Assembly (NCBI GenBank): GCA_050084515.1
Contig: CM114271.1
Coordinates: forward strand, 11,780,001-11,844,000
Length of the DNA stretch: 64,000 nt
Source of the DNA: Blasia pusilla
Taxonomy: Eukaryota
Direction: 5' to 3'
Both the position numbers and the translations under genes were made by a program. Shown here piece by piece: positions 18,539 to 60,100 of this stretch (within the stretch, counting starts at the first letter, position 1; each line of letters starts with the position of its first letter). The notes beneath the pieces were generated by a model. That model saw only the letters and a list, made by a program, of their open reading frames with translations, searched no databases and was not told the DNA's origin.

Positions 18539-18713
18539 GAGAGGTAGATGACTTGATCTTTGCGTGATATGGATTACAGATAGGCGACTAACGATGGGGC
18601 AACCTAGCAACCGGCCTTATGATTCGTGCACCCAAGAAGGTGTATAGCATGTAATAGATATATATAGGGCTACCTAGGAGTTAGAGGGACCTAACCGCCA
18701 GTTAGGGGGGCGA

Positions 18714-20515: not shown

Positions 20516-20688
<173 letters not shown>

Positions 20689-20692
20689 TTGA

Positions 20693-21556
20693 TGTCTATG
20701 TTGGTGTGTGATCGATGTTCTAGGGGTTGGCACATGATGTGTTTGACTTCACGTATGGATGTTGTTCCTAGTGGAAGGTGGGTATGTCCTCGATGTATTT
20801 AAGAGAGGTAGATGACTTGATCTTTGCATGATATGGATTACAGATGTGCGACTAACGATGGGGCAACCTAGCACCCGACCTTCTGATTCGTGCATCCACG
20901 AAGGTGTATAGCATGTAGTAGATGTATAGGGCTACCACAGGAGTTAGAGGACCTAACCGCCGATTAGGCCTGAGAGTTGTGGTACACTTATGTTTGTGGA
21001 TGCTCTCGTCTATGTTATGTATGTATGTGAGTATGGTATGTCAGCGATGTATGTTGTATGACGATGTGGATTCGCACGACAGCTGTCATGACCATACGGA
21101 TTATGTCGTAGAATATAGTGTGCTAGTAGAGGCCATACCTTATGTAGGACCGTAGTGGCTAGGTAGAGATACGGTTTCATACATACGGTTGGGGGTTACT
21201 CAGTTGGGATGACTTTCCCAGTAGGGCCCGCTCTTAGGTTGGAGGATATAGTGTGGAGTGCACCCAAAGAACAGTTAGTTCTTTGAGTTGAGCCTGTTGC
21301 GTTGGGAGTTAGTCTTGGTAGTGAGTAGAGCTCTTGGCTATGGTGTTTCCCGCAAGCTTCGACCTAGATTCTCCCATCATGGAGTGGGTTTGGCTCGATT
21401 GTATGTGATTCTATACGTGTTTTATGACAGTAGCTCTTTCACGGATTTTAGTTGTGGTACACTTATGTTTGTGGATGCTCTCGTCTATGTTATGTATGTA
21501 TGTGAGTATGGTATGTCAGGGATGTATGTTGTATGACGATGTGGATTCGCACGACA
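20693..21556 (+). repeat. Second 3' end of copy 1: half PHD, 3' UTR, B1 20976-21081, GC, A2 21084-21450, B2 21451-21556
   Basis: Repeats about 18433-19206. A2 shares diagnostic bases with A1 (TTGGGATGACTTTCCC, TATAGTGTGG, CCCAAAG). Followed by the TSD. Confidence 0.92.
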
Positions 21557-26400: not shown

Positions 26401-26618
26401 GTTGCCTCACTATACCCTTGTTTTCTCTATCTAGGTTACCCTGGTTAAAGAGTACCTTGAGTTAAGAGCATAGGGTAACCCCAACTAACTACTTCTATCA
26501 CCTAACTCACCCATTTAAATTGTAGACTGTTGTTCTAGCTCCTTCCACTCACCTAACTAGAGACCCAAAAGTATCTAACACACATGGGAGCCACTTATGA
26601 AGGGGCGCACAGCCAACA
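23426..26618 (-). mobile_element. About 3.2-kb insertion in the RT of family 2; possibly a long LTR with an Athila/Tat-like PBS
   Basis: Splits RT between STLDLH and HQLPI. The minus strand starts TGTTGG, ends TGACA at 23444, and is followed by TTT-TGGCGCCATTTCTGGGGA. Confidence 0.45.
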
Positions 26619-28019
26619 TGGAGATCTAAAGTACTGAAGATCTTTGCATGCCCTACCGTATCAAAGATCTCCTTAGGAGTAGGAATGGCATATCGATCTG
26701 ACCTCATCTCTCGATTGCTAGGACGGTAATCTCCACACATCCACCTATCTATCAAGTTGCCAAACATATCCTTCTTTGCCAGCGTGATTGTGGTAGATGC
26801 ATACTCACCATGCGATAACTCCATCAGTCTTGCCTCCCACAAGTCATGATACCTACAATGAATCAAGGTTCTTTCCAAATCACAATACCTATAGGGGCGA
26901 AGAAAGGTCAGTGTATCACTAACCAAATCTATTTGTATCCTCATACCCTTCAAAGTACCCAAGTCTCTCATACTCAAGGAAAAAACTATGTATCCACTGT
27001 CTCTCTCCTTTTTTCAAGTGGAGAACTATCATAAGCCCCCAAGTCTCTATTGTGACCTCACTCGAAGAAGACACAACCTCCGACTTTGGTTGTTATGTAG
27101 CAACCCTAGCCACCTCCACTACGACCACCCCACTCTAACCTTCCACATCATGCTTCACACCGGAAAATGAACATATGCTACTCTAGCCGTCTACGCACTC
27201 TCTGCTCAGAAAACGTCCCAAGAAGTCCATGTGTGCATATCTCTCCTCGTCTCGCCCCTAGGCAATCCCTCTATAGACCTTGTAGGAAATGCAACAACTT
27301 GTAGACGTGACGACATGAATGACACTCGCATATGCCTTTGCTCAGTCAAACCTAGATTGACTATCCATGTGAGACACTTGAGGTCCATTGTATGCCCCAA
27401 CACTTCTCTCCGTGATGCCTCTGTCACATTTGGCATTTCCATAGTACCCATAGTGAACCTCATGGCGCACTCGCGCTCATTAACTTTGGGCTCCTCCAAT
27501 GCTCGGGTCTCTTCAGCCCATATCATGCATGGCCCTTCCTGATGATAGGCATGGGATGCGGGAAAGCTCATCAATGTAGATAAGGCCGCCCTCGACTCCC
27601 CCACCCTATTGGCTATTGCCAATGGTGGTCTATCATATATCCTACCTCACCACTTGAGACCGACGCGGTGGACCCAGGATAGCATCCACTATCAAGTGTG
27701 GTACTCTCTCAACTCCATCATGAGCTTGCCTCAATACCTTTGATGGTTGAAGGTTGGTCCACCACAACCGTACCGTAGACAGAGAGCATGCAATCCAACT
27801 CTTGTTGCATCCAAAAATACGGAAGGTCCCAATCAAAACCTCACTTCATGCACACTTTTCATCACCCGTGCACGAGTGTCTCCCAACAATGGCTCGTTCT
27901 CCAAAATGAAGGCTGGAGAACATGTCTAACTCTAATGTAAGTGTCTTAATACTCAGAGCTTCTCCCAAAAGATCCCTAACCTTGGATTCCTCAATCCAAA
28001 CCCTTAGACAGCCGATGAA

Positions 28020-29400
28020 TAACTTTGACTGCACTATGAAAAAATAGAAGCGGGACACGCTCTAACATAGAAAGAGGAGGCTTGACAATGAGGACATCGA
28101 TGGCGACTTGATAGTATGGTTGCACGGACTGCCTAAGGAGTCTCTACATTTTTGGGGGGAATTGTGAGACATTGACATCTCCGTTCAGTTCTAGGAAAGG
28201 GCAACCATGACTTGTACACTACAAGGCTCCAACAAATTAATGGAGAGATAAAATCCATGGACCAACAGGGATGGAAGCACTCATCCGCTGCAGTCTGCAC
28301 CATTGATGACAGTCAAATTTTTGGTCCATACCCTCCAAGCATCCTCCATCTTTCTTCTTAGCAAGACCAACAAGTGGAGGCAACTCAAAAATATAGTTTC
28401 CATCATAAGTGTTGGAAACTCATCCACAAAAATTTGCTTGAACATTTTCAAGGGGAGAGACGAAAGCAAACTATTCCCTGAAACTTGCAACAGGAATGTG
28501 TATGCAAATGTTGGGTCTAATTTGTTTCCAACAGCTCCCGTGAGGTCGATGACATCTAGAATGTCTTTCTCTTGAACCACACTATCATGAATTCGTGAGT
28601 ATGGAGTCAAAGCTAGATATATAGAGGCAGGGGTGGAAAACGTGAAACCGAAAGCACTCGTAGGTTATAGATTGCCGAGATCAGACAGAGTGGGCTTTAG
28701 AGGCAAGCCATAGATTCTATATTGTGCATTAGAGTAAGGTAAGAGATTCCATACTCCGTAGTCTCCAATCTGGAGAAGAAATTGGAGTGATAGCAAATAT
28801 TCTTCAACTAGTGCATGAGCATCGCGAGGTTGCGCCCGAATTATCTTCGATTGAGGAAGGGCTACTAGATGACTACCACATGTGAGTTTCACATAATTTT
28901 CCATCTTGATATGATAACAAAGTTGATTCCACCAAAAAGAACGTGAATGAGAATAATGAATTTATAGTGAACAATGTTCAAGTGTATTTTAACAAAAGTT
29001 GTCTAATATGCAGTTGGTAGTTAGGTTGAACCATTTCCAGCTGACTGGACCAAGCAATCAGGAATATTCTTGCAGTAGATCCTTGGGTATGCAACCTGTT
29101 GGAGTCCCACGGTTTTTCTTCGATGAGGAAATGTAATCCGTTGAACTCCAATGGATTGCAGGGATGACATTCGTCAACCCATCGGATTCCGACAAGTAGC
29201 ATTTTGACCAATCATTGGGCTTATCTCAGTTGGATAGAAAAGTGTAAGGCAATCTATCGGATTCCGACCAGTTACTTTTAAGCCCATGGAATGGCACTTG
29301 GGACAAAAGAAAGGAGAGGGGCGAGGTGGTATTTGTTTAACTCATCTAGTTTTGATAGGTTGTAGTTGGTCCAAAGTGGGGTTGGGGGGTCTTTGGGATG
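28020..29400 (-). other. About 1.4-kb unrelated insert with short coding-like segments, placed just after the GWPC motif of the family-2 methyltransferase
   Basis: DNMT homology stops near 29400 and resumes near 28010 (NPRLGIFWE). Between them lie minus-strand ORFs 28281-28610, 28665-28904 and 28978-29211 that I do not recognise. Confidence 0.5.
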
Positions 29401-30513
29401 TACATGGCCATCCAAAAATCACCAAATGAATGGTGCCAAATTTATCTAGGTCCTAAGCTCCCAACAACAAAAATTTGGCGGGTAGTGTATATTGGTATCA
29501 CCATACTGCAAATACCGGCAATAAATCAAAATATCTCTGGACCAACCTGATGCAATGAGACTCGTTGTGCAATCTCATCTCTCTCCAGATAATGGTATTG
29601 ATGCACCCGTATGCATGCTTGTAACACCACCGCCGATCGCATGCTGATCCCTCCAAAGAGATCTAACACCCAGATAGCCTCCTTTGGACATTGCCACACA
29701 ATGGATGTGGTATGCACTTGTATCAACGTCTCCACTCCAAGAAAAAGGCACAATTATACGCGTGCCTCATGAGGTTCCATGCACTCTTGTGCAAATCACA
29801 AGTCATATCCCATAATGGTGAGGAGATCTCAACAACATGGGAAGAGACACTCACCATGTAATTATTGAAGACTGAGATACAATCAAGCTCATCAGGCATC
29901 CGAATTGCTATATTTGATACTCACACGAAGTAAGGAAGCTTAATCTTGATTAGTTAGTTAAGGGCAATGATCTTAACTTGGGTTAGTTAATCATAATTAG
30001 TCTAACTCGAGACTATGGTTAAGATTATGGTTAGGTTTGATTGTACATACCCTATATAATTGAGAAGGGGACCAGCCTCCATTCGTTCTCTCATTCCAAA
30101 ATTTTATTTTCCATGGTGGTGTATGAGTGAGAGTTGTTTCCCACCAATTATGCTTATTTAGTAGTTTTTAAGAGTTCTTGATCAATTTAACCATATGAGT
30201 CCGCATTGTTCAGAAAGAGGCCCAAATCTGGTTTTAATTTTCTTAAAGAGCTCGTCGAGAGCTTTCCAATGCATAAAAAATTTCTTGATGCTCACATTCA
30301 AAGCTCCCGCAATAGCAATTTCAGTGTAGGAAAGTGCAATTAGTGAAGAAAAGTTATATAGTTTGCTCTCTACAGGCCAATTTCGAGTAGTTCTTTCATA
30401 GAGTAGATCAATTTTGGAAAATTTCATGTCGATCTCTATTTTGGAGTGGTCTATGCTTCAATTGAAATAGTGGAAAGCCTAAAATTACGTCTTTGTGAGT
30501 AAAATTGTTTGTC

Positions 30514-39000: not shown

Positions 39001-42000
39001 TAAAAGAGGAAATCTGTGGTCGTAGAACTCCTATAGAATATACCACCGAGACTAAGCGTCTACCTGAGTATGATTTCTTACTGCAAGCCATGGTATTCAT
39101 TGATTTGCAGCAACCTAATGGAGCTGATCCTGTGGATCCTGCCTCTACTTCGTCAGAGTTCACCTGCCCAATATGCCATGACCAACTTAAGGATCCAGTG
39201 GTGAATGAATCAGGGTCTACATTTTGTAAATCCTGTATTACTAAATGGTATGCAAAAAAGGACATGTGTCCTCTGACACAGAAACCCACAAAGAAGATCC
39301 TGATTGACAACATAGCACTGCGAAATCATATGGAGAGGTGAGTATCATCTGTCTCTGCTTTTCCAATGGTGCTCAAGGTCAAGGGACCCATTTTGAGCTT
39401 TAACCATCTAGAACTTTGTGGGTCCGAAGTCAAAACTCCTGTTGGATGTGATCTATTTTAAGAGTTGAGAGTCTGTGGAAGTGAAAGTCAGTCTCCTATG
39501 ATTGTGCACGTGTAGGAGTGAAAATCTGCTTTATTCTCTGACTGCTCTTCCTGATGGGGCAACCAGTCTCCTCTACTACGCAATCCCACCTTATGTAAGG
39601 CCCATTAACAGGTTATGTAGTATTCCTCAATGCAAGATCAAAGTTAATTATGTGATAACATATCTGATTTGGCTTTTGGTTAGGTGTCTGAGGACATCTG
39701 AGACTGCAGCATCCACACCAAGTGGTGTATCCTTGCCCCCAGCATCGCCTGAACATTACCAGCCTCCAGTCTCCCTGCCATCAAAGGGATCTTCTGTTCG
39801 AACACTCATATCAGATCTAAAATCCAATCTTTCAATGAAGGTGAGTACCACTGGACACATCTCTTCCAAAAAAAAATGTTGAATGAACAGTGGAGTCAAA
39901 CACAGAGCATCAGGACAGGCCTCACAAATGCAAACAGATTGCACATACATGTACAAAAGTAAAAATTTGTTGACAAACTGTAAACAGATTTTGAATGCAA
40001 GAGTATGGCTATTTAAGGCTCTAATAATTACTTCTTTGCAGGTCTTGCAAAGTTTGAAGGACCTGGAAACGATTGCTGGTGGGAGTGAGGGTAAAGTCCA
40101 GATTTATGAGAGTGCAGGGATTCCCGCTCTTGCAGAGCTTCTGAAATCAGAGGATGTGCAATGTATGGAGAAGGCTGCAGTTGTGCTTGAGGCTCTCACT
40201 TTTGAGAGGAAAGATGAAGAACTTGTGCCGGAATTCAGGGAGAAAGTCTGGGGAGCAGTGGTAGATGATTGTCTTGATCCACTCATCTCACTCATGCAAT
40301 CTGGTACCAAGATAGCTCGACTGAAGGCAGCAGAGACTGTGGTACACCTGCTTGAGGATGGTGATATCCGGGGACAGATTAACCTTTGCAATGGGGTGGT
40401 GTCAGCATTTAATGGATTGACTAACATTGAGGATGGATTTATCTTCACAAATGTCCGGAATGAGGGAAAAGATCTATGTATCAGGGGTTTGTCTCTACTG
40501 AGTGGGGAAAAACCAACAGTGTCCATGGACGATGTAGCCCTTGTAACAGCCTTATTGCAGCTGACCTCATCTCGGATTGGATCAACTTCCACTGTGGCAG
40601 AGGAGTCTTTGTTAGCTCTGAGTGTACTTGTGGAGATGGGTGGCCAGACTATACGGAATATTTTGTGTGGGAGGCCTAAGGCAATGCAATACCTCGCCCG
40701 GTGGATTTCTAGACCTCTCAGTGAAAAAGGGAAAGTTGAATTACTGAAGATTTTGTATTGTATGTCTTCAGCCAAAGGCATGCCTGCAGCTATCATGGAG
40801 TGGGGGCTAGTAAATAACCTTCTTCCAAGTCTGACCAATGAATTGCCTGGAGATGACTTCATCGAACATTCTATCAAACTTCTTTGTACATGTTTGTTGA
40901 CACGTGGTGTGAGATTAGAGCCCACTCTTTTCCTCAGTGGAATGAGGGGTTTTGTAAATATACTATCAAGACCGACATCTGAGCAGTGTAAAGTGAATCT
41001 TTTGTTAATTTTAGAACATCTTTGCGAGAATGATGAAGCCCTCAGGAAGTCCTTCCTGAGTATCGGTGGGATGGCTGCCTTGAGAGATTTGACCAAGTCT
41101 TCATCAGATGAAAAAACTCGAGAAAGAGTTGCACTACTAGTCAGAATTCTCTGTGCAATTCCAGATTGTCATGAAGACATGGGCAGAGAAGATACCATGG
41201 AGTTGCTTTATCTTCTCTTGAGCGTTGGCTCTCAATGCTGCGGCAACGCTTTGGTTGCAGCAGAAAGTTTGATCAAATCAAAGGGATGGCCCATGGCATT
41301 CAAGGATCTATCCTTGGATAGGATAGTTGACAGTCTCCGCCCCACAAATCCCACTGAGTTTCGAGAAGCAGCAATAGGGATCTTATCAGTGGTCACTCTC
41401 AAAAATCACCCACAAATAGAGTGGAATAGGGCCTCCATGGAATTTCTTCTGGATGTGATCCGCCAGTGCCCGCACACTGCACGTGTAAGGGCTGCAGAAT
41501 TGTTGATGGCTATCGTAAAACACAATAAGAAGCTTTGCTTTGTTTTTGTGGAGGAAGATGTGTTAAGTCTCTTCAAAGAGATGAATGAGGGGCTGGGAAA
41601 GGAGTTCCGAAGAAGATATGTACAGCTACTCACCATTTTGTGCAGGCAAGATGATGACTGCAGGGAGGCTGTTGTGTCTGTGGAAGGTGTGGAAACTCTC
41701 TTAGATGTGCTAGAGAGGGGAAGGATGAAGAATGACGTAGCTAATGGCCTCAAGTATCTTGTGAACAGTTTACCATCCAGAGCAGCAGTGGTGAAGTGTG
41801 GGTTTATCGATAAGGCAGCCGCATGTATTCATATGTTTCCAACATCTCAGTGCAGTTTTGAGCTCCTTGAAGCTCTAAGTACCTTACTGGAAAGCAGAGC
41901 CATTGCTGGAGAGTTAAGAAAAGCTGAAGGGGTCCAAGCCCTCATTCGGGTGCTGCGTTCAAAAGATATTGAAGGGAAGAAACTATCAGCGACTGTTCTT

Positions 42001-43047
42001 GCAAAGTTGATGAGACTGGACCCTGAATCAGCTATGTTCTTTGAGCAGGAAGAAGGGATCTACCTGTTGATGGATCTACTGAGCCTTCAGATGGCTCAAC
42101 CTTCAGAAATATTTGCTGATGTGCAAGTGCTGGAGGCTTTACAAGCGGCAGCCCAGTACCCAAATAACAAGATGCAGATTTATGAACATGGTAGAATTTC
42201 TGAACTCCTAAGGCTGTTGACCCAAGAGGCCGCGGTGCCCAGAGTACAGGAGCTGGTCCTTGAAATATTGTTAGAGCTGAGCCGAGGGAATGACAAAAAA
42301 TCTTTAAAGCCTGATCTTTGTTTGGTATTACAGAACTCTGGTATAGTGAAACCCTTGATAGCAGTTGTAAACCGGAGGACTAATTTGTGCAACAGATCAG
42401 TTGAGAATGCTATTCGAATAATCCGGAATATTAGTATTAATAGTGTAAGTTTCAGGAGGATGTTGTTGGACGAAGGAGTCTTGAACTTGCTGTTGGAAAG
42501 GATCAACCACCATGAAGGACCCGCAGATATTGTCCAATTGGCTGTAGTTGCCCTAGAGAGATTCATGTATGAAAGCAGGGGCAGAGTGGGAATAATCGAA
42601 GCGGGAGGAATATCCCCTATAGTCTCAGTAGTCAAACATCCTATAGGACTTTCTGACCAAGGTAGAGGCTTTGCTATCAAGATTCTGGTCACAGTAGTAT
42701 CAGATCATGAGCATTCCAAGAGTGTCTGTGATTCTATCTTCAAGGAAGGCATCATACCTGGCCTTAGGGACATCTTGGAGTTCGGACCAAGCTGGGAATG
42801 CAAAACAGAAGCATTAGTGCTCCTAAAATATTTGATCACTTCTGGTCCCCAGGCAGCTGTTTGTAAGGCCATACGAGCAGAAAAATGTATTCCCATGCTG
42901 CTAGAGTTGAGGAAGTTGAATTCATCCTGTGAGAAACCTGTGAACGAAACTCTTGATTTGCTAAAGAAACATGACAGAGAGTGTAAGAAATTGATCAATG
43001 AGCTAGATAACTACTCCATGATCAGGGCTCTAAAACCTCAAGCATAG
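36081..43047 (+). CDS. Plant U-box (PUB)-type E3 ubiquitin ligase with N-terminal helical domain, U-box/RING-like domain and a long ARM-repeat region. Predicted exons: 36081-36313, 38006-38330, about 38865-39337, 39684-39840, 40042-43047
   Basis: Helical N-terminal domain (CQRRRCKLLANCIKSL...ALVDARR/WVEKVQQYGNLRLLFL...FRKIS..ILESLHSLP). EFTCPICHDQLKDPVVNESGSTFCKSCITKW...CPLT...LIDNIALR. About 1000 aa of ARM repeats (AGIPALAELL, GGMAALRDL, EGVQALIRVL, GGISPIVSVV). Splice phases are consistent except that the exon 2/3 junction and the start codon are uncertain. Confidence 0.85.
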
Positions 43048-45339: not shown

Positions 45340-46036
45340 CTCAATATGGCTCCAAATGAGCTGAAACGCTCGAGAAATCTGCTATGACAAGTTACCCGTG
45401 GTCTCAGCATATCATCCTTGACCTCTTGAGGTTGTCCTCTAGTATCTCCGAAGGCGCTCTACTAGATCTCGCCGATCGATCCTAAAAGACGTGATAGTTA
45501 TTGTGCGCATACACATCGCTACACAACATACATCGCTGTCACCGAACATACACAGAAACACGCACGATCTCAAGCTAACTCATGGAATATACACAATGAG
45601 ACGAGAAGTACCAAAATATCTCCAATCGTCCCTCTAGCTGGTGGTTAGGTCCCTCTAACTCTAGATATCCATCTATCCCTACCTACCATGACATACATCT
45701 CTCAGACGCTAAGAGCGAAAAGGCCGGGTGCTCATGTGGCTCCATCGTTAGTCGTCTTCTTGTCATCCATGTCACAAACATAAATCAGAATCTAGAACTA
45801 TCTTCCCTATGTACATCAGAGACACATCCATCGTCCCAAAGGAACCCTAATGAGATGTGGCGTCAAACATGCCATATGCCATCCTCTCGAACATCCATCA
45901 TATACTAGCATAGTGGTTGCACCACGAGCGAAACCACACAACATATATCGCAAGCCTGCAAGAACTATTGCTAGGCTCAGATCAACTATACCGTCAATGT
46001 TAGGAAGGTGACATGGCGCATAGTTACGCATATGGT
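45340..46036 (-). mobile_element. 3' part of older family-3 element (PHD, 3' UTR, PPT about 45627-45636, B about 45499-45626, start of A from 45496)
   Basis: DHMRNYAPCHLPN...YMLCGFARGATTMLVYDGCSRGWHMACL...WMCL. Conserved GAGTTAGAGGGACCTAACC before the PPT. Decayed junction CACAATA-AC-TATCAC. Confidence 0.8.
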
Positions 46037-46408
46037 CCTTTGTCATGACCATACGGATTATGTCGTAGAGTATAGTGTGCTAGTAGAGGCCATTCTTTAT
46101 GTAGGACCGTAGTGGCTTGGTAGAGATGCGGTTTCATACATAGGGTTGGGGGTTACTCAGTTGGAGGTGACTTTTCGAGTAGGGCCCGCTCTTAGGTTGG
46201 AGGATATAAGGTGGAGTGCACTCAAAGAACAGTTAGTTCTTTGAGTTGAGCCTGTTGCGTTGGGAGTTAGCCTTGGTACTGAGTAGAGCTCTTGGCTATG
46301 GTGTTTCCCGCAAGCTTCGACCTAGATTCTCCCATCGTGGAGTGGGTTTGGCTCGATTGTATGTGATTGTATACGTGCTTTATGACAGTAGGTCTTTCAC
46401 GGATTTCA

Positions 46409-46419
46409 CTCAAAGAACT
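46409..46419 (+). promoter_or_regulatory. Putative self-priming primer-binding site (copy 2)
   Basis: CTCAAAGAACT is the exact reverse complement of AGTTCTTTGAG at 46235-46245, which starts 30 nt after TATAAG (46205). Confidence 0.8.
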
Positions 46420-47889
46420 GGAGTAGATCGATGGTAGCTTCGATTGTAGATCAGTAGGATCTGGTTAGGGCAAATTGTGTACTCAGCCGTGGATGTTCGT
46501 GGCTTGCGGCCTATGTTGGAGGTGTGAATCTGGTGTGTGGTTGATTGGAAAAGAAGCGCCTTGCTGAGAGCTTTCCAACGTGCTTTAGATCGCCAGATTT
46601 CGTCAAGGGAGTTGGAAGTTATCAAGGATTGAAGATTCTGGTTCGTGTTCGACGGTTTTCTGATGTGCAGAGCTTGGAGTGCGGAAGCTCTGTTGAAGTT
46701 GATCCAGATCGGGTGAGAGGTTCCTGCTGCTACTTGTATTGTGATCTCATGTGAAGCTATCTGCTCGAGTGTGTGGAGCGTTGCGGATTTCTGCGTGCAT
46801 GAAACTTGGCGGAAGTGATGTCGGATTTACGATTCTGGAGGTGTATGGACAGCAAGTTTGTCTGATTTTTAGCTCGGAGTAAAGAGCTTGGTTGTAGCTG
46901 ATTTTTTGTGGAGAGATAGCTATGGTGGTCAATTGAATTTTGGTCGAAACAAAGTTGATTTCGGTCACGGATTTGTGAAGTAATTGCTGATCGAAATTTC
47001 GCAGACTAGCTCAAGGTCTGGCTATGGTGGACAACGGATCGGAGGGTCTGGTTGGTTGGTGACTTGTTCATTGTTGGAGACGCCTATCCCATTGGGGGCG
47101 CCCTGGTTGGGCCTCTCTCCATAGCGAAGCATGGTGAGGCTTCGAGGCAACTCGTGGTAGCTCGGGCGAGTGGGCGAGTGGGCGTGAGAGACGGAGTAAG
47201 GAGCAAGGAGCAAGCAAGCAAGCTTGCTTGCTTGGGCATGAAGCAATTTTTGCAGGATTTGTGATTTGAGTGTTGCATAACTGGTCACCCATCTTTGGGC
47301 TATTCTGCCTGGAGGACGCTTATCTGCTGAGTTCTTAACTATGCCAATGTACACACTGTTGTAGCTCATTTGGTGCTGTCCGGAGATGTGTTAGGCGCTT
47401 TATGCATCTCAGGTTTTTGGTTGATGTACCTCTAGCGCATAGTACGGTGTAACCTCTCCATGCAGGTGATATTTTCAGGTGCTACGAGTTCGACTAGCAC
47501 GTCATCGACCCGCGGCGGAGTAGCTATTGCGTTAGAATTGTGTGGTGGGTTTTATGGAGTCAGGGGGCACCACGTTTGGTGGATTGTGTTACCTTGATTT
47601 CCATTTGCGATTGGAGGGTTGTCGTTGGACTTCTTGTGTTTGGATCCCCTCCATCGTTGCTTCTTGCTTGCGCGCCCATTGTTAGGGTTGACGCTGATTT
47701 CCAGAGTAGTGTTACTCCTGTGTGCTACCGATAGTGAGGCTGGAGTGATGAGCAGTAGACTGTGGGAGGCTTCCTGTGGTGATGACAAGTTAGGTTGCGT
47801 ACACCCATAGCTAGTAGAGCTAGAATATTATAGCGACATCGACGTCACTTGGTTATTTGGTGGTGGTAATTTGGTGGTGGTGCGGCATC

Positions 47890-50280
47890 GGCGTTGGTCA
47901 TCACGGAGTCATTTGTCGGGTGGTGGTTGGGGACCGTGGTGCGGACAGTGGTGGTTTTACACGGAGTGGATTTAGGTATCGGCTACCTTTTCCACTTCCG
48001 ACAGTTGATGAAGAGGAGGACGAGGGTGTTCCAAACACCGAGTCTTCTACGTTGTTATCGAGTGTTGCAGCTCCATTGATTTGGGATATGGACGGTGGAT
48101 ATGGGGCCATGAAGGGCCCACGACGATACTCGGGTGCAGTGGGCACCATTGAGTTGGAGGACTTCATGCAGGAGTTTGATACGTGGTGTGATATGCAGAT
48201 GTTGCAGAACGCCATGTTGTTTACACCCTTCTTGGCTTGGAAGGGGTTGTTTATGCTCTTGGAAGGACCACCCATGGATGATTACCATGAATTTAGGAAG
48301 GACCATGTTGCTGAGATTGAGGAGTGGAGACAATATTGGTCTCTGGGCTATGTGTCTATCACCCATGGTGGTATTGGTAGTAGTGCTCCTACTATGCCAG
48401 CCAGCCCGACGTTGAGTGGTACGAGTACGAGCCGGAGTGGGGGTATCAGTGGAGGTACTAGTGCCCCACCATCGTTCGGCCCGGTTGCAGAGTTCTTCAA
48501 GAGGTTGAAGAAGAACTATCAGGGAGTGAAGACGGAGAAGTTGAGGAGTCTTCAGGAATTTGAGCGAAAGACTGGTGAGAGTCTTCGTGAGGCATACACT
48601 CGTATGCGAGGCTTGTTTTCGGTTACCCAGGATGTGACTGAGGATCAGGCACTCCAATTTTGGTATGGGATCTTGGAGAGAGATTTGCGCCGTAGGGTAC
48701 GTGATGCTACTCTTATGAGTGATGATTCACCCACATTGACCCGTGTGTTTGCTCTATCTGAGAAGATTGAGCTTAACATGGTGAAGGAGAGAGTGGTGAC
48801 ATCCGCATTTAGTAGGGATACAACTACTACTTCTTGTGTTCAGCAGCCCACCTCACAGTCTCGTAGTAGTGGTGGTGGTAGTAGTAGTGGAAGTCGTGGG
48901 GGGTACACACGACCTCAGTCAGGTCCTAGAGGGACACTTGCGTAGAGACCATTGCCTTCATTTGCTGCCCCGGCAGGGCGATCATGTTGGACATGTGGAG
49001 GTGATCATGTTAGGAAGTTTTGTCCCCAAGAGGATGGGAGACGGACTTTGGAGGATGGGCCTCAGTCGGCCCCGACTCAGTGTGATCATTGCGGGAGACC
49101 AGGTCATCCTCTAGAGCGTTGCTTTGATCTTCATCCAGAGTTGAGATCAGGCCGCGGCCGTGGTGGAGTAGCTCCGAGAAGCCGAGGTGGTAGAAATGGT
49201 AGGGGTGGTAGAGGTGGACCAGTGGTTGGAGAGCCTACGGTGGCTACCCATACCACTACGACAGAGTCAGCTATGGTTGCCTGGATTGAGCAGTTGGAGC
49301 AGAAGTCGGCTACAATGGCTCGTATCCAGCATAGATCAGGTTCGGAAGCAGGGGCTTCCACCTCTTATGGAGGGGATGATCTCTCTTATATGGCGAGTGC
49401 AAAGACAGTTGAGTTGAGGCATCAGTGCGATTCTGAGAGGAGCCACTCGAGCGTCAAAGCCATGTGGTGCTACTGTGGAGTTGGACCCACAGAGGGGTGA
49501 GGCTGGGAGGCAGGCTAGGCTTCCCCATTCATTCTTGTTGTCAGAGGTGCTTAGGACTCCATCCATGGTTCCTACGCAGCCTATTGAGCCGACAGTGGGG
49601 ACTAAGGCATCTACATCGCGTGTAGTAGACACGGATGCAGCATCCAATGCAGTATTGCGGATGGCAACTTCAGTGTTGGGATCCCCATTATTTTCGGCCA
49701 CGGAGCTGATGGCTTTAGGAGTTGACTTAGATCTTGTATTTCAACTAGCAGCCACGTTGTGTGAACGTGGGGGTGTTACTGCTACAGGTGTTGAGGTGGA
49801 TGAGGGTGTTGCGGTGGAGCCACCCTCTATGTCAGGTGTAGCATTGAGTACCTGTGCTACTTGGCAGGCAGCAGCGGCGAAGATGGATGCATTACTAGCC
49901 CGGCCAGACATTGATTGTGAGAGGCTTACACCTGGTGTATGTATGTTGGACAACCGGAGTGGGATCTTCCGATTGGTGAGTCCTACAAGACAGGTGTATA
50001 GACCAGATAGAGTCTTGTTAGACTTTGGTGCCCAACCTTTGATGTTGGGAAAGGCGGCATGTATTGGTTTGGGTATTCGGAGGTAAGAGCTTGAGCCTTG
50101 CCCATTCCAGATTCAAACATCACTTGGAGGAGCCAATGATAGGTCTCAATTCATGACACGGGAGAAGTTTTCTGTACAGTTGAGACCAGATCATGCGATT
50201 GATAGCTCCCGGTTGGGAGTATCTGCGGTAGTCACATCAGCCGAGTCGTATGATGTACTAGTTGGAGGAGCGATGTGTAC
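47890..50280 (+). pseudogene. gag and protease (copy 2)
   Basis: Near-identical to copy 1: two zinc knuckles, RGG tract, RVLLDFGAQPLMLG. Confidence 0.85.
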
Positions 50281-50741
50281 CCGATGGGTTTTGGTTGGAT
50301 TATCGAGAGACAGCGTCTTATAGACCTGGTTGGAAATCCGGGGATGGACGTATGAGCCAAGTTCCTATGAGATTTATTTATGGGGCTCGACTAGGAGAGT
50401 CTTCCCCAATAGTGTTAGCATCTGTGGCTGGTTTTAGTGGAGTAGTCACTTGGCCATGAGACTTTTTGGAGGGTAATGTTTCTGCTATGGATTCTTATGC
50501 GCATGAGGAGGTAGAGGAGGTCCCTGTTTTTGCAGTCGTGGCATCCTCATTGTTAGATGTGCCACTTTGGAGTTCAGGCGGTGCACTACGGCAGGAGGCT
50601 GATCGCCTAGTGCAGGAGGCTTGGTGTGAGGCTATTATACCTCACGAGGAAGAGGAGGCCCCACAGCGGACTCCTACTTCTGGTCCAGTTGGGTTATCCC
50701 CTTTGAATACTACACGCATTGTATGGCAATATCCGCTGGAG

Positions 50742-51715
50742 GGCATTTGTGTGTTAGATCTCTTTGGTGGCATTAGCACTGGTTTGGCTGTAGTGTTGCA
50801 GGCCCGTATTCCTGTGCGGAGATACGTGTATGTGGAGCGAGATGAGACGGCCCAAAGAGTCTCATCCTGACATATTGGTCAGTTGATGTGGAGATATCCT
50901 GAGTTGTTTCCGCCATCAACTATTCGTGGGTACCAACGTGCTTTTCCGTCACACATTGCATTGTTGGGGGCGTAGGACCTTGAGAGGGTTGGTCCTGTGG
51001 ATTTGGTGATTGTTGGATGGCCATGTCACGGTCATACACGTGCTGCTCGTGGTGAGGGATTACATGACCCTAGGTCTCGATTGTTTTGGGAGATGTTACG
51101 GGTGTTACGACATCTTCAGGTTCATCAGGCACGTGCTCAAGTTGACATTCTGGAGAATGTTCCATTGTTGGGTGACACTCGAACCCGGATGATGGCGAGT
51201 GTTCATGAGGTGCGGTCTTGGATTGGACCAGCGGTGTTGTTGGATACAGCGCGAGTTGGCTCGCGTGCACATCGTTTACGCTTGTGGTGGACAAACTTGT
51301 TGCCTAGGGAGGTTCTACGTCGAGCATATGATGCAGTGCAGCGGGATCCTTGCCTTACAGTGGATAGTATCTTGGATACTGGGCGACTTTCTCAAGTGGT
51401 GAGGGTTATTGATCGGTCACCCATGGCAGTGGTGAACCGTGTGGGCCAGCCTAGGATGGCACTACCCACATTTGTGAGTTTTTCCTCGTCACATGCCTAC
51501 AGAGAAGGTGGTCCGGGGCTTGTATGGGATTCTCATGTGCGACAGTTGGTGGAGCCTAACGCTGATGAGAGAGAGCGTGCGATGGGATTTGCTCTTTGGT
51601 GTGGCGTTGTTGCTTCTATTTCTCACGCTTCACGACGTCATGTGTTGGGTCAGGCCATGGACCTGAATTTTTTGACTTGGATTTTGAGTTTTGGTATGGC
51701 CGAGCAGCGTCGACT
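50742..51715 (+). pseudogene. DNMT3-like C5 methyltransferase domain (copy 2)
   Basis: VLDLFGGISTG, YVERD, DLVIVGWPCHG, ILENVP, AHRLRLWWTNL, ERERAMGF, SRRHVLGQAMD. Confidence 0.93.
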
Positions 51716-53265
51716 CCGAACTATGTCTATGGGTCTTCCACCCCTTGTAATGAGCTCGATGGCGACCGGGACGGTAGAGGCATCGGCTGGGGGCGAGGAG
51801 AGTAGTATTTTGCATCCTTGGAGTAAATGGGATGTAATGGTGGGCATGTGGAGTTGGTTGCTCATCTTTGGTGGAGGAGTTATTTGCTCAGATGATGGTG
51901 TAGGTAAGGGTGTACCATCTTGTGAGGGGGTTACGTAGCAGCCAATGGCATCGTCCTCTCCCTCTAGTGTGCCAATGGAGGAGACTTGGGAGCCATTTCT
52001 TGGGCCCAAGCTTACGGGAGGTGAGAAACGACGCTTGACACAGTTCCTACGTGCTTATAGGAGTTGTTTTGCCTTTAGCATGAAGGAGTTGGGTTCTCTA
52101 GTTGGACGCGGTATACGGATTGATTTGGCTAGTGATACGCCAATCTTTCGTCGTCCCTACCGATATAGTGATATGGAGAGGGACCTGATTCAGAGTAGGA
52201 CGTTGGACCTTTTGGAGGCTAGATTAGTGGAGTTGTCGCATGGAGAGTATGCATCAGCCACTGTCATGCCTGCTAAAAAGGATATGTATGGCAACTACAC
52301 GAATAGGCAGATGTGTGGAGATTACCATTCTATCAATCGGCAAACCAAGGCCGATAGGTATGCCATGCCTACACCTGAGGAGAACTTTGATGTGGTGGGA
52401 TAGGCAAAGATTTTCGGTACTTTGGATCTTCGGGCAGGATACATAGACCTGGAGTTGCCAACCTTGATGCCGATGGGTTGAGTAGGAACCCATGTACTAG
52501 CCAAGAGGATACAACTGGGGATAGATGGCATGGCGAGGTTGATGAGGAGATGGTGTCAGGTTGGCATGCATCCGCCTTTTTATGTTGGTTAGGGGTGGAC
52601 TCTAGTATGGAGGATCACATGATATCTTACTCTAGTCAGAGGGTAGATGGCCAGCCTTCAGATCCTAAGGTTGGAGATGGTGGTACGGATCAGCGTGATA
52701 TTCATGATGATTCGTTGGTGTTGGAGTTCCTACGGACCAGTAGTGTGCCAAGCATAGTGAGTGCCAAGGAGCGAGACCGTGTTCTTCAACGTGCTAAGAG
52801 GTATCGAGTGGAGGGAACACATATTCTCCGCGTGTGGGAGGATGGTAGAGTACGAGTAGTGCCACATTTGGCTCAGAGAGAGCGCATTGTGCGACATGCC
52901 TAGGAGGAGTTGGGATATTTTGGGGTAAAGCGTACATTTAGCTTACTCCTTGGCCAGTATTGGTGGCGTGGCATGCATACTCATGTGCTGCAGTTGGTGT
53001 CACGTTGTATGGTTTGTGACCGGGTGAGTCGTGTGGTTCAGACTCATGTTGGAGGGTCTAGAATCTAACACCTCGTGCACTTGTACAATAGTGTGGTTCA
53101 GACGGTGAAGAAGGCATTGCGCAAGTATCACACGTCTGACTCATGTTGGAGGGTCGTGATGGAGTTGTTTGGAAGGACGATGTGCATAATTGTGCGCCAT
53201 GTCATCTTCCAAATGTGGATGGTACTGTTGACCCAAGCTTAGCCATGATACGTGCTAGCTTGAGG

Positions 53266-53406
53266 TGCATGTTGTGTGGGTCTGCTGGTAACGCAGCCCG
53301 TATGTTGGTGTGTGATTGGTGTCCTAGGGGTTGGCACATGATGTGTTTGAATCCACGTATGGATGTTGTTCCTACTGGAAGGTGGGTTTGTCCTCGATGT
53401 TCTTAG
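53266..53406 (+). other. PHD finger (copy 2)
   Basis: CMLCGSAGNAARMLVCDWCPRGWHMMCLNPRMDVVPTGRWVCPRC. Confidence 0.92.
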
Positions 53407-54165
53407 GAGAGGTAGATGACTTGATCTTTGCATGATATGGATTACAGATGTGCGACTAACGATGGGGCAACCTAGCACCCGGCCTTCTGATTCGGGCACC
53501 CAAGAAGGTGTATAGCATTTAGTAGATGTATAGGGCTACCTGGGAGTTAGAGGGACCTAACCGCCTGTTAGGGGGGCGAGTTGTGGTACACTTGTGTTTG
53601 TGGATGCTCTCGTCTATGTTATGTATGTATGTGAGTATGGTATGTCAGCGATGTATGTTGTATGACGATGTGGATTCGCACGACAGCTGTCATGACCATA
53701 CGGATTATGTCGTAGAGTATAGTGTGCTAGTAGAGGCCATTCCTTATGTAGGACCGTAGTGGCTTGGTAGAGATGCGGTTTCATACATAGGGTTGGGGGT
53801 TACTCAGTTGGAGGTGACTTTCCGAGTAGGGCCCGCTCTTAGGTTGGAGTATATAAGGTGGAGTGCACTCAAAGAACAGTCAGATCTTTGAGTTGAGCCT
53901 ATTGCGTTGGGAGTTAGCCTTGGTACTGAGTAGAGCTCTTGGCTATGGTGTTTCCCGCAAGCTTTGACCTAGATTCTCCCATCGTGGAGTGGGTTTGGCT
54001 CGATTGTATGTGATTGTATACGTGTTTTATCACAGTAGGTCTTTCACGGATTTCAGTTGTGGTACACTTGTGTTTGTGGATGCTCTCGTCTATGTTATGT
54101 ATGTATGTGAGTATGGTATGTCAGCGATGTATGTTGTATGACGATGTGGATTCGCACGACACCTT

Positions 54166-57100
54166 CCAAACCATACCATCGCGTCCCTCCAATAAGAGAA
54201 CATCAGATGGCAAAACCTCACGCACTCTCAAGATAGTGCGCCCTGTAATCACATCCAATATTGTGGGTGCCGTATGTTCCAAGTAGACATAGTCTCCCTG
54301 ATGAAACCTCCAGATAGTTGGTCGATAACCACCTCCCAGAATAGTCGCATACCTCAACGTATCCCGATGTTGCGTAGTCGCCAAGTTCTCAAACGCCATG
54401 GACATCACTCTCCGAAACAACTCAGCCCGCTTAGAACATGCTCGCATCCATACATCAGGGTCATCAATATGCAACACCTCACCAACATCTCGACGAATGG
54501 CCGCAAGTAAATCTGGCTTGCGGCCATAAAGCAGCAAGTACGGTGAGAAAGACGCTAAGGGTGCGTGCTTGGTGAATCTGTATCCCATCGCCAATCACGG
54601 AAATTGAAGGTCCCAATCTCCTAGGTGACCTCTTTGTAAGCCAAACTTGCGCAATCCTCTCGTCACCGTCTGCACAATCCTCTCCGCTTGTCCATCCGCC
54701 TCAGGATCATCTCGTGAAGTGGTGATGTGGTCGATCAGCGCCTGATCACATAAGCTAGGCCTGAAACTCCCCATGAAACTCCATACCCTGGTCTGTCAAC
54801 ACCTCAGCTGGTGCGCCAAAATGACTCAGCACTCGATTTAGGAAGGCATACGCTACTTCCTCACTTGCTTTTTCAGGCAATGTAACCAACTCTATCCACT
54901 TTGAGAAGTATTCGACCATCACCAACACATAACGACTATGGCACTCCGTCAAAGGTAAAGGTCCTGCAAAATCCAAATTCCATCTTTAACCTAAATCCAT
55001 GATCGGAAGTGGATGCAACTGTGGAGTCGGAGCATTCAACGATGCTCGAACCCGATCACACACCATGCACATGGCAACAAACTGCTGAACGTCAGTTTGT
55101 ATGCCTCGCCACCAATACTATATCTGGAGCAAGTTTTACGTCCACTTCACTCCAAAATGACCCAACTCGTCGTGGGCATGACGCACTAAACGTGCTCTCT
55201 ATGAAAGATGAGGAACTACACATACTCTACCATCCTCCCAAACTCGCAACACATGTGTCCCCTCCCACTTGAACCGTCTAGCTCGTTGTAGGATCCGATC
55301 CCGCTCTCTAGCATCCATTGTCCTTGCCACACTGCAAGTACGCACGTACTCCAAGACTTCTCCATCGTTGTGAATATCTCGGCCACCTCTCGTCCGCTTA
55401 CTCGCGTCTGGATCTAAGGACTCTCCATCAGACCTGTCCATCAAAGTCTCAGCAATCCGGCTCTCCATAGCCAACAAGCCTAAATAGGCTGACGCGTGCC
55501 ATTGTGGCACCAACTCCTCATCACTCTCACCATGCCAACGACCTGGAGTCGCATCCTGCTGACTCGGGCATGGGTTACGACTCAAACCATCTGCATCTTG
55601 GTTGAGCATCCCATGTCTATGCACCAGATGGAAATCATTCTCTTGCAACAAGAGAGCCCATCTTGCAAGGTTCCTTGTAAGCTTGTCGGACTCCATCAAC
55701 CACTCAAGTGGCTGATGATCAGTAATAATGGTAAAGGGGTTGCCGAATAGATAACACCGGAGATGTGCAACAACCCACACTGCAGCCAAGCACTCACCTC
55801 ATATGAGCTGCACTTCGCCTATGCATCGTTGTTCGAGCAACTAGCATAAGCCACCATGAATTCTCTACCCTCATCATCATGCTGGGTGAGCACGGCTCCA
55901 AGCCCCAACATGCTCCAATCGGTATGCAACTAGAAAGGATGCCCCCTTATTGATCTCCTCAATATGGGCACGGACGTCAATCAATCATTGAGTGGTTGAA
56001 ATGTTCTCTTCTGCTCATCCCCCCAGTGCCATTCCTGATCCACCTTGGGCAGCAAGGTTAGCGTTTGCAATCAAACTGAAATCCTTGAGGTACCTTCGAT
56101 AGAAGTTCGCCAACCCCATGAATGCACGAACTCGACCCACATCTGTAGGGTGTGGAATGCGTGAAATAGCCGATACCTTCATCTTCTGCAAACCAAGGCC
56201 ACCTGGTTATATCGCATGACCCAGGTACTCAATCTGATCGTAGAAGAACTTGCACTTGCCTGGATATAGCTTCAACCCATGTAATTGCAATTGTCAAAAT
56301 ACCTCCTTTAGATGTCGCTCATGCTCCTCAATTGTGGTGCTAAAGACTACGATGTCATCAATATAACACCTAGCAAAATCCAGACATGCCAAGATCCTAT
56401 CCATGATCCTCTTAAACTCAATCGGGGAATTGTTTAACCCAAATGGTAAGAACCGCCACTGGTACAAACAATCCTTCCCATGAGGATCGATGCCCCAAAA
56501 TGCCGTCTTTTGCTTGTCCTCCAATCTGATAGGCAGCTGATGGTATCCAGCTTGAAGATCTAATGAACTGAAGATCTGTGTATGCTCAATAGCATCAAAG
56601 ATCTCCTTAGGAGTGGGCATAGCATACCTTTGTCTGCGGATTGATAGGTCGGTAATCTCCACACATCCGCCTATCTGTCCAATTACCATGCACATCCTTC
56701 TTGGTGAGCATGACAGTGGCAAATACATACTCTCTGTGCAACATCTCCACTAGTCTTGCTCCAAGAAAGTTCTGGCTCCTACTCTCAATCAAAGCCCTCT
56801 CCATATCACTGTACTTGTAGGATTGTCGAAAGATCGATGTGTCGCTCGAAAACTCAATGCAGATCCCTAGACCCTTTAGTGTACCCAAATCATGCATGCT
56901 AAATGCAAAACAACTCCTATAACTCCTAAGGAACTGAGGTATCCGTCGCCGCTCTCCTTTTGTCAACTTAGGGCCCATATTTGGCTCCCAAGTCTCCATC
57001 GTGACTCCGGTAGGACTCTATGGCGAGGGTGTTGGTGGTTGCTATGGTGCAATCCCGTCTCGGACAGTAGAACTCGACTGCTCCCCTGTAGCCAACTGCC

Positions 57101-60100
57101 AAATCTGATCTCCTCCACGTGTAGTACCCGGAACCACGCTCGATGTTGTGGCTATCATCTCTGGGCGTACCTGAAAAACATCTGAAGAAGTCCAAGGGTG
57201 TCTCTCCTGATCATCCTTGGTGTGTCAATCTCCTTGGGTCTCGCCCCAACCACTGCCTCAACCGTCTCGATAGGCATGGGGCTCACCAAGCAACAGCTAT
57301 AACCTGTCGTAATCTCAAACGACGTTGCTCAGCAACTCCTAAGCTGAAAATCCATGTCAAGCAGTTCAAGTCTATCGCCTGACCCAAGACATGACATCGT
57401 ACTGCCTTTGATAGTGACGATGCTGCCATCACCCTTGTGGAAAATCATATTGCTCGCTCTCGCTCAATGGCGTTGGGCTCCGCCAACTGCTATATCTAGT
57501 CATCCCAAACCAAACCAAGTCCGGCCTCCTTGAATGCATAGAAAGCGGGAAAAATCACAAATGTGGGAAAGGCTGCCCATGGCATGCCAATCCTGTTGAC
57601 CACAGTCAACGGAGATCGATTATGGTGCCGTACTACCTGTGACCGACAACCTGGATCTAGAATAGAATCCACCAACAAATGGAAGGGGCGCTCCACTCTC
57701 GCATACGCCCTCCGCAACACCTCATGTGGCACCAAGTTGGTCCACCAAAGACGCGGGTGATGTGCTTATGAACCTACAATTTCTGCATCCAACAATACTG
57801 CCGTGCCAATTCATGGGCGCACCTAATGTGCACTTGTCACCACGCGGGACCTCGAATCACCCAAAATCGGCATTTTCTCGAGAATGTATGTTGGAGAACG
57901 GGACTGATGCTCTTGCAAGTATCGCAAGATCTGCATCATCTCCCAGAACAACCTAGACCGAGAGTTAGCTAACCCGCTACTTTTTCCAACACTCGATCGG
58001 CAGTAACATGACCAATCTGTGCAATGACCAAATCTATGGTCCCTACCCACTCCAAGTCTTGCGCCCCCAACAAAGAAATGCCTTACAATAGGGAACTCTG
58101 GTAACCTTGGATGGAGGACGCAGACAACAAGTCGGGAAATCAAAGGCGTAATTGCGCCACATGGTGAAGTGAAGCGCGCCTCGCAAAGTACAAGTACTGT
58201 TGCATGCGCACTCTTGCTTGCAAAACAACATCCAACACATAAATACCCTCCTCTGGGATGCACCACACAATCGGGGTGGTGTCCCAAGGGGTTATAGTAG
58301 CAATCCTGGCTACCTCGGGTTCCTCTGACCTGTCATGCTCTGGTGCAAACACCTCACTCCAGGCCGTTTGCACGTGCGTTGGAGCTCCTCACTCAAGCCC
58401 CACAGCGGCACCTCTCTTCCACGGAACGGTGCGGCTACCATATCACTCCTCTCCCTAGAAATTTTAGACGCCGAGTTATCCTCTGCATGGATATGCTCCT
58501 CAATCAACTCAAAAGGCCACGTGATGGCGCTGCTAAATGCTGCTAAAGTCGCCATCTCTCATGGCCGTCGCTCAATCACTCCACTTGTGAATCAAACGGG
58601 TAATGAAAAAATTCGTCCATCACCGGACCGCCATCTTGGTGCGTTGGATGCTGACTCCTCCAAGTAATCCAGGGAAAATCCCATCATGTACAACACTGCT
58701 CCACCAACCAAGATACCATAGGACCGTACATCGATCACTATTGCCTTCGCTCGCACCACGGACTCATGTGTAGGATGTCTTGGGCAAATCCTCACCACAA
58801 CCTTCTCTCCGATGATAAATTGTGTGGTACTTGCTCCACCCAAGGCTGTGTGTATCCGAAATGGAAAACGTTCAACATCGGCCCTTGTCAGGCCCAACCC
58901 TATAAACACGGCTTTCCTCAACATCAGGGGTTGCCCTCCTGAATCTAACAAGAAACGTTGTGGAAAAAATAATCTACCTCATGGACTCACCAACTGGAAG
59001 ATCTCTCCCCGGTTATCCAGCAACACAACACCTGGAGCAACCATGGCTCGCTCTATCATGTGTCTAGCAGGCATCTCCGCCATCCTAGTAGCTGCAACCT
59101 ACCATGAATCTAAGGTGGACGGCCCAAGCATCGGCTCCAAGGGCAGGTCCATCATCTCCTCTACAATCACATCTGAACGTGATGCAGAAACACCATCTCC
59201 ACACTCACATAGCGTAGCGGCCAACCAGAAAACCTCGGCGGGCGTACCTCCCAACGTCATAACATCAAAAGTAGAAAATATCAGAGCACGGTACACCATT
59301 GTGGCTACCCCCAACATCATACTTGACACATGGTCCTCCCGAGCATCAGCAATAGGAGTCATCGCACTCACTTCTCCCATCCCCCTCCGTGCTTGTACAC
59401 CAACAACATCAACTCTCCGGGAACCCTGATTAGGACCCATCGATGGGATCCTCATTGCCTTGGACAACGTAAAGACTCAGGAAGCTTGGTCAATTTCATG
59501 GCTTCTCCTCTTTGTGGATTCACCTCTGCGGAGGCTCCACGTGTAAGAGCAGTGGCTGCCTCTAACTGCACAGTCGCGCACATCCAGCGAGGATCCTCCA
59601 TATCTCTGGCTGCTCCATAAGACGTCGATGCCACGGCTCCGAGAGTGGGTAACCTCAATGCCACAGCAAAAATATGATGTTGTAGCTGCTGTATCTGAGC
59701 AGCCATCCCAGCCTCATGCCCGACGTCTCCCTCGACGCATCTAGGTGGTGGGACTCTACCTCCTCCACGGGCAACTCCACCATCCCCTCGAGAAAATCTA
59801 GCTCCTGGTCCCCTATTGGGACCACCTAGTGCACGACCTCTAGGCCCACCCGGACCGGAAACTCGCTCTGGTGCCCTCCCTGGTCCTTGGTCCAGACGTA
59901 ACTCAGGGTGTAAGCTGAAAAATAGCGTACGTGTATGACCATACCTGTGACAATAGTCACATTGATTAACTCGTGGTGTAGCACCATCTCCTCCTCTATG
60001 ATGAGGTACGCGCCCATGACCCTGACGAGTGCAATCGCACTGGTGATGGGCTCCACCACATGCCCAACAAATAATCACAGCCTGCTGCTGTTGAGTTGCA

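Follow-up and report, generated by a model that had tools for sequence, protein, structure and literature searches.

A candidate self-priming site in a Ty3/gypsy-type retroelement with split repeats from Blasia pusilla

In the retrotransposon Tf1 of Schizosaccharomyces pombe, the RNA's first 11 bases pair with a priming site, and cleavage by RNase H falls between bases 11 and 12 (PMC7175516). Self-priming has also been predicted for Tj1 (PMC4600332) and, among plant lineages, for the Tcn1 clade of mosses and clubmosses and the TAR lineage of Ty1/copia (PMC6317226). Here, we analyzed a 64,000-nucleotide (nt) stretch of Blasia pusilla DNA (GenBank assembly GCA_050084515.1, contig CM114271.1, positions 11,780,001 to 11,844,000, forward strand), referred to below as the window, which holds two copies of a retroelement with a comparable arrangement. 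The 11 nt directly after its 5' repeat, here called A1, are probably the primer-binding site, and the element would prime its own reverse transcription through a duplex between this site and the predicted start of its RNA. All coordinates are positions in the window unless a locus is named.

As in Tf1, Tj1, the Tf1/sushi group, Tcn1, and TAR, the 5' repeat of the Blasia element is directly followed by a site whose complement, about 11 nt long, lies where the RNA is predicted to start. Like Tf1 and the other predicted self-primers, it lacks a site for a tRNA 3' end and encodes a Ty3/gypsy-type polyprotein with RNase H. Unlike Tf1-type elements, its integrase ends in a PHD finger and not in a chromodomain, and its pol contains a piece of a cytosine DNA methyltransferase (DNMT). 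Its repeats are moreover split in the order A...B-A-B, so that the site adjoins a repeat that makes up only part of the terminal repeat of the integrated copy.

Split repeats have been described for a Gypsy-type element before. In KnitGypsy-Dnmt3 of Klebsormidium nitens, the repeats are DIRS-like, in the order A-coding-B-A-B (de Mendoza et al. 2018, PMC5890265, Fig. 4c legend). The Blasia element resembles KnitGypsy-Dnmt3 in its Gypsy-type domains and in having a DNMT in pol, and Klebsormidium proteins are among its homologues, whereas the host group is different and the best protein matches of the Blasia element are in liverworts. Supplements aside, PMC5890265 does not contain the term "primer binding" and gives no account of priming, target duplications, or a palindromic junction. 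The literature on KnitGypsy yielded nothing beyond that paper, in which, again with its supplements aside, the repeats of the lineage are noted only as "the same as DIRS." Split direct repeats in the order A1-internal-B1-A2-B2 also characterize DIRS, Ngaro, and PAT-like elements (PMC7192593, Fig. 1 legend). These are tyrosine recombinase elements, whereas the Blasia element has a DDE integrase and 4-bp target duplications. The primer of DIRS-1 is stated to be unknown in PMC7192593, and the literature on split direct repeats and circle-junction integration, apart from the supplements of PMC5890265 and PMC6317226, gave no account of the mechanism.

Pairing between the predicted RNA start and the end of repeat A1

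The pairing is exact in copy 2 of the element (46041-54161, forward strand), which consists of A1, an internal part, a G-rich tract, B1, a GC dinucleotide, A2, and B2. Repeat A1 (46041-46408) is 368 nt long, runs from TGTCATGA to GGATTTCA, and contains the promoter and the predicted R-U5 part. Its limits were set by BLAST and by alignment of the window's A copies, four of them full and one partial; because its end is defined by this alignment, the boundary is independent of the complementarity at issue. Inside A1, a putative TATA box, TATAAG (46205-46210), lies 30 nt ahead of AGTTCTTTGAG (46235-46245), the proposed self-primer and predicted nt 1 to 11 of the RNA. The base that follows A1 is the first of the candidate primer-binding site, CTCAAAGAACT (46409-46419), the exact complement of this motif. 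A first-pass annotation of the window had recorded the TATA box, the motif, and the complement, and direct reading together with a script confirmed all three. The annotation had also pointed to a second copy just upstream that could fold over the motif in the 3' repeat. This copy is present as ACTCAAAGAAC (46220-46230), the left arm of a local 11-bp hairpin with 46236-46246.

Copy 1 (9648-21556, forward strand) has its parts in the same order. Its A1 (9648-10014) contains the motif at 9841-9851, and the candidate site, CTCAAAGAATT (10015-10025), again follows directly, with 10 Watson-Crick pairs and one G-U pair. The layout earlier proposed for this copy, with positions 9811, 9841, and 10015 spaced as in copy 2 and a single G-U pair, was recovered, but the sequence at 9811 reads TATAGT and not TATAAG. 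Across the window, the motif pattern with at most one mismatch occurs 12 times against 1.89 expected, and none of 100 shuffles reached 12. A chance origin of the pattern is unlikely.

Read as a priming system, this arrangement predicts the following steps. Transcription would start in A about 30 nt past the TATA box, giving an RNA that begins AGUUCUUUGAG, and the 5' end of this RNA would fold back onto CUCAAAGAACU, about 174 nt downstream. The RNase H of the element would cut after nt 11, and the freed 3' OH would be extended through the end of A to yield minus-strand strong-stop DNA, which would then transfer to the corresponding stretch in A2. Plus-strand synthesis would be primed by the G-rich tract before B1, and canonical reverse transcription would produce a linear cDNA of the form B-A...B-A. 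The polypurine-tract-like run AGGGGGGCGA (53570-53579) ends exactly where B1 starts, as does the G-rich tract of the second family described below, and the G-run is likely the plus-strand primer.

The same arrangement in a second family

We scanned metagenome contigs with an alignment of the reverse transcriptase (RT)-integrase frame and obtained 79 loci, cited below by L numbers. These metagenome copies are not independent lineages, and L063 and L064 are one region assembled twice. The loci include a second, AT-rich family with 41 to 47% protein identity to the window family over RT, RNase H, and integrase, represented by complete elements built on the same plan. Its repeat A is about 291 nt long and starts TGTCATGCC, its B/A junction is CACGACA-NN-TGTCATG, and B recurs after A2. 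Among the matches with a B/A junction downstream of the RT match, 16 have B again after A2. Exact 4-bp target duplications flank L037 (GGTC), L062 (CCAC), and L064 (TGAC), while L031 agrees at three of four positions and L070 is ambiguous.

In this second family, TATAAAAG is followed 32 nt later by AGTTTTTCTAGA, and the 12 nt directly after A1 are TCTAGAAAAACT. Both families therefore place a site directly after the 5' repeat and its complement inside that repeat, with 11 nt in the window family and 12 nt in the second, in which the predicted RNase H cut would fall after nt 12. The distance from TATA box to motif is 30 to 32 nt in both families, with T at -1 and A at +1 in both, and the second family has a run of 6 to 8 G directly before B1. 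The first-pass annotation had proposed that the site fixes the right end of the cDNA at the end of A; in agreement with this, the pairing starts exactly at the A end in both families.

We compared 15 distinct A1 ends, 4 from the window family (copies 1 and 2, L014, and L025) and 11 from the second family, with L063/L064 counted once. At least 10 of 12 positions form standard pairs in register, at offset 0, in 12 of the 15, and the 12-nt match is perfect in L037, L051, and L062. The exceptions are L025, in which the motif is deleted, and L048 and L070, which have one extra A in the site. CTCAAAGAACT is retained in L014 and L025 (about 77% protein identity), though the leader beyond it differs. 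Between the families, pairs 5 and 8 change on both sides, as counted in a joint alignment, and pair 9 does so by reading of the sequences. When only the outer eight pairs of the joint alignment are considered, 97.9% of cells pair, against 50 to 75% when the partner is slid by one to three columns. Compensatory changes in other families had been named as a check on the Tf1-like, tRNA-independent reading, and they are found: a distant family keeps the pairing with different letters, in what is one contrast between two families. Position, covariation between families, and the conserved TATA spacing all support that reading.

The hairpin arm upstream of the motif behaves differently. It is kept in the close relatives L002, L012, and L014 and is absent from the second family, and on this comparison what the two families share is the pairing of motif and site, not the arm. 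A third family was sought by a de novo scan of the loci and the window for a TATA box followed by a 9- to 10-nt inverted complement, which returned the known cases and AT-rich chance pairs. A viral collection held mostly pararetrovirus-sized contigs and no usable 5' ends for a third family.

These comparisons bear on the simplest alternative, in which the complementarity is accidental or is an inverted repeat that acts at the DNA level only. Repeat A has 368 nt in which to find a match and is partly of low complexity, and an exact complementary run of at least 11 nt from the first base after A1 arose in 21 of 20,000 dinucleotide shuffles of A. The second family repeats the arrangement with other letters, at the same distance from the TATA box and at the repeat boundary, and its 12-nt run was matched in only 1 of 20,000 dinucleotide shuffles. 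We regard this alternative as extremely improbable.

Transcripts, RNA folding, and other roles for the duplex

To place these predictions beside transcripts, we aligned three raw RNA-seq runs (X1, X8, and X10; same species label) to 53640-54280. Transcripts come from the element's sense strand, with a depth of 40 to 230 for pairs whose first mate is on the minus strand against less than 14 for other pairs. Reads continue from A into CTCAAAGAACT and beyond (26 in X8, 14 in X10, and one contig in X1), and most transcripts that enter A2 from B1 do not continue into B2, as depth drops from about 140 to 230 to about 36 to 44. In copy 2, the motif in A2 carries a private change, AGATCTTTGAG (53882-53892); position 53884 within it is T in 77/78, 124/124, and 85/85 RNA reads. 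The older related family described below is also transcribed, on its own sense strand.

Several observations weigh against the RNA's first 11 nt as self-primer. Neither at 53882, the A2 equivalent of 46235, nor elsewhere did the three runs list a pile-up of 5' ends, and at 53882 depth rises by only 3 to 9 reads on a falling trend. Coverage of A extends upstream of the predicted start, for the most part through read-through from B1 into A2, and in each run 13 to 16 reads come into A from varied flanks. Within the window family, the arm at 46220-46230 could trap the motif in a hairpin in RNAs that start further upstream. The folding z-score of the window RNA is weak, at -1.55. Changes within families are one-sided only, for the most part transitions resulting in G-U pairs and otherwise plain mismatches, so the covariation amounts to a single contrast between the two families. 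The tRNA scan, discussed below, was confined to the window and the 79 metagenome loci.

Molecules in two runs share an end at 53849, 3 nt before the TATA box of A2 (27 in X8 and 24 in X10). We considered this position as a start 33 nt upstream of the predicted one and rejected it. Because depth falls across it and it adjoins a cluster of differences (53850, 53862, 53863, and 53867), the pile-up most likely reflects clipping at the right ends of molecules and not a start. It may alternatively mark a real RNA 3' end.

Because the three runs mapped no 5' end, the start site is placed from the conserved TATA spacing and from T and A at -1 and +1. On these grounds, we lean toward the motif as the exact 5' end of the RNA. 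The duplex might instead be real and used for self-priming, with the primer supplied by the motif in A2 or by a longer RNA that begins upstream of the TATA box. The missing sharp 5' end and the coverage of upstream A both fit such a primer, as does one locus, L012, in which CTCAAAGAACT stands after A and leads into A's reverse complement, running backwards from the motif. At L012:3361-3878, A2 (3361-3699) and CTCAAAGAACT are present, but the place of B2 is taken by a reverse-complemented stretch of A (positions 1 to about 190; 3703-3878), and the end reads CATGACA. The joint is exactly as expected for a motif 3' end extended on the site, which speaks for priming through the duplex, or for a template switch at the inverted repeat, and if it records priming, the priming strand carried the portion of A that precedes the predicted start. 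L012 is, however, a single copy and could reflect template switching at the inverted repeat during DNA replication. The two families both retain a TATA box 30 to 32 nt ahead of the motif, as well as T at -1 and A at +1, and the hairpin arm would mask the A2 motif in the window family. A primer from A2 or from a longer RNA is thus unlikely, and the first 11 nt of the RNA remain the favored primer.

Folding predictions agree with the proposed duplex. Minimum-energy and centroid structures alike place the 5' end of RNAs that begin at the motif on the site. For the RNA starting at 46235, nt 1 to 12 cover the end of A plus the site; for the L037 RNA, the result is a terminal helix of 15 bp (z, -3.08), which RNAalifold also predicts for nine second-family copies. 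A short hairpin lies within about 10 nt after the primer-binding site in both families (window, 46425-46447; L037:4468-4490).

Such a helix need not serve priming. Long-range pairings at the 5' end are known in other retroelements, and the pairing of 5' end and leader could be a structure for packaging, for dimerization, or for controlling translation or strand transfer, with priming left to something else, such as an internal tRNA fragment. The helix does run past the repeat boundary into A, by 1 bp in the window family and 3 bp in the second, which priming does not need. Against a purely structural role, the two families agree on the point of the helix at which the repeat boundary, and with it the start of the cDNA, lies, and no other candidate site was found: TGG is absent near A1 of the second family (no occurrence in the 40 nt after A1 in L037 and L062), and Rfam gave no match in 45900-47900. 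A structural role with another primer is, in our estimate, distinctly unlikely, and self-priming through the duplex is still preferred.

A conventional primer would be a host tRNA or half-tRNA bound at the site, with the complement in A as a by-product. Half-tRNA priming is known in plant Ty1/copia lineages (PMC6317226), and the narrow reach of the tRNA scan leaves this possibility some weight. Under it, CTCAAAGAACT and TCTAGAAAAACT would each need their own piece of tRNA, yet each has an exact complement in its own repeat, at the same place in both families. Neither site begins with TGG, and in the window, L014, and L025, TGG occurs after A1 at differing distances. The tRNA scan found none in the window and one doubtful tRNA in the 79 metagenome loci and the window together, too few for a real test; this tRNA matches only 7/11 and 8/12 positions of the two sites. 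Priming by a host tRNA at this site is very unlikely, and self-priming again accounts better for both families.

Split repeats, cDNA ends, and integration

The right end of copy 2 consists of B1 (53580-53685, GTTGTGG to GCACGACA), the GC spacer (53686-53687), A2 (53688-54055), and B2 (54056-54161), which ends in CACGACA and is the last part of the element. The spacer lies inside a palindromic B/A junction, CACGACA-GC-TGTCATG. The target-site duplication CCTT stands at 46037-46040 on the left and at 54162-54165 on the right. In copy 1, B1 (20976-21081), the GC spacer, A2 (21084-21450), and B2 (21451-21556) follow one another in the same way, and CATG is duplicated at 9644-9647 and 21557-21560. 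Both copies thus start with TGTCATG and finish with CACGACA (TG...CA) between 4-bp target duplications. The two ends do not carry the same whole repeat; the left end has A alone, and the right end has B-A-B.

At the A2/B2 joint, the end of A meets the start of B bluntly, as TTTCA/GTTGTGG in the window and TTCAAT/ATACATG in the second family. Since the pairing starts at the end of A and the G-rich tract ends at the start of B1, the A2/B2 joint corresponds to the two predicted cDNA ends abutted. The integrated termini, TGTCATG...CACGACA, are in turn the two halves of the palindromic B/A junction. Because the predicted cDNA ends meet at A2/B2 while the integrated ends lie at the B/A junction, the integrated copy is, as its sequence is laid out, a circular permutation of the predicted linear cDNA.

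A DDE integrase that cuts the palindromic B/A junction inside the repeat would presumably produce this permutation. Tentatively, we propose that canonical reverse transcription, self-primed on the minus strand and primed before B on the plus strand, gives long terminal repeats (LTRs) of the form B-A, and that the DDE integrase cuts the internal palindrome CACGACA-NN-TGTCATG of joined or bridged cDNA ends. This proposal is possible, although we hold it with less than even confidence. The bridge between the cDNA ends could be a circle junction, or an end-to-end template jump could make it. If either junction of a two-LTR circle were cut at random, an A-B-A-internal-B isomer should arise as often as the observed form; among the 17 upstream matches listed, B follows none of the A ends that lie upstream of the RT match. 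A template jump at the right end, followed by integrase cutting at the outermost junctions, would yield the observed form only. The simple two-LTR-circle model may still apply and is kept as one of two options.

The joint varies among copies. Among second-family copies, the joint is shorter by 2 nt in L064 and by 1 nt in L042 and longer by 1 nt in L069; B2 is truncated in L062 and missing from L076, and L024, a close relative of the window family, varies as well. These changes lie at L064:10920, L069:4879, L042:13283, L062:13296, L076:13282, and L024:9326, and their flanks are well kept. Such variation fits an A/B joint that is made anew in each cycle, although it is not proof of one.

The order of the repeats first suggested an Ngaro or DIRS element. 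This identity was dismissed because the element has a DDE integrase and target duplications and lacks a recombinase; Pfam found no tyrosine recombinase in 15 and 36 open reading frame translations. DIRS, Ngaro, and PAT-like elements are not known to make target duplications. By its coding content, the element is of the Ty3/gypsy type with a DDE integrase, and its repeats are ordered as in DIRS and Ngaro.

In copy 1, Pfam places RVT_1, RT_RNaseH, and Integrase_H2C2 within one 608-amino-acid (aa) frame (15664-17490), with a weak rve match in the next piece and a PHD finger downstream. The PHD finger (PF00628; E values, 2.8e-9 and 1.1e-10) sits at the C terminus of the integrase, in the place of the chromodomain of the Tf1/sushi group, and full-length relatives have PF00628 too. 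A piece of cytosine-5 DNA methyltransferase (PF00145; E value, 6.3e-6, above the curated cut-off) is encoded in copy 2 at 50976-51938, upstream of the RT, with a counterpart in copy 1 at 14447-15402; PF00145 was also found in the relatives P0009, P0098, and P0105. Pfam matched nothing in about 5 kb of the 5' half. The coding frames of both window copies are interrupted by stops and frameshifts, whereas intact relatives of about 1000 to 1060 aa have RT, RNase H, a zinc finger, rve (PF00665), and PHD, with PF00145 in some. The nearest proteins belong to the liverworts Calypogeia, Marchantia, and Riccia, and those of Klebsormidium and Closterium come next.

Both copies are nested in older related elements (about 60 to 70% identical) in the opposite orientation, near the end of the PHD-coding part. 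Copy 2 splits an element about 70% identical to it on the other strand, and the older sequence resumes across the insertion with a 4-nt overlap. The older host elements occupy 45626-46040 plus 54162-59600 and, beside copy 1, 21557-29741; no recognizable 5' repeat was found in the minus-strand element at 45626-46040 and 54162-59600. The nesting may reflect an insertion preference for such elements or for their chromatin. Copy 1 also has an intervening insert region (18713-20696), in which an extra B, a partial A (positions 2 to 255), and a B (18713-19206) are followed by about 1.5 kb of unrelated sequence, with a 290-aa minus-strand frame at 19140-20012; from 20697, the end of the internal part is repeated. 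Between the transposon nests, a 1054-aa open frame (39883-43047) with armadillo repeats of the plant U-box type (PF25598 and PF00514) is presumably a host gene.

As a mechanism, self-priming is not new, being established in Tf1 and predicted in several other lineages. What is new here is its candidate occurrence, with covariation, in a PHD- and DNMT-bearing Gypsy lineage of liverworts and charophytes, together with the implication of the priming sites that the linear cDNA is of the B-A form and permuted relative to the integrated copy. The model predicts a linear cDNA that runs from the start of B to the end of A, an A/B joint remade in each cycle, and integrase cleavage at the B/A palindrome. 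If it is true, integration would proceed from an internal att-like palindrome, every copy would have the fixed permutation A-internal-B-A-B, and there would be a mechanistic account of how split direct repeats arise. It may also hint at where to seek the unknown primer of split-direct-repeat elements.

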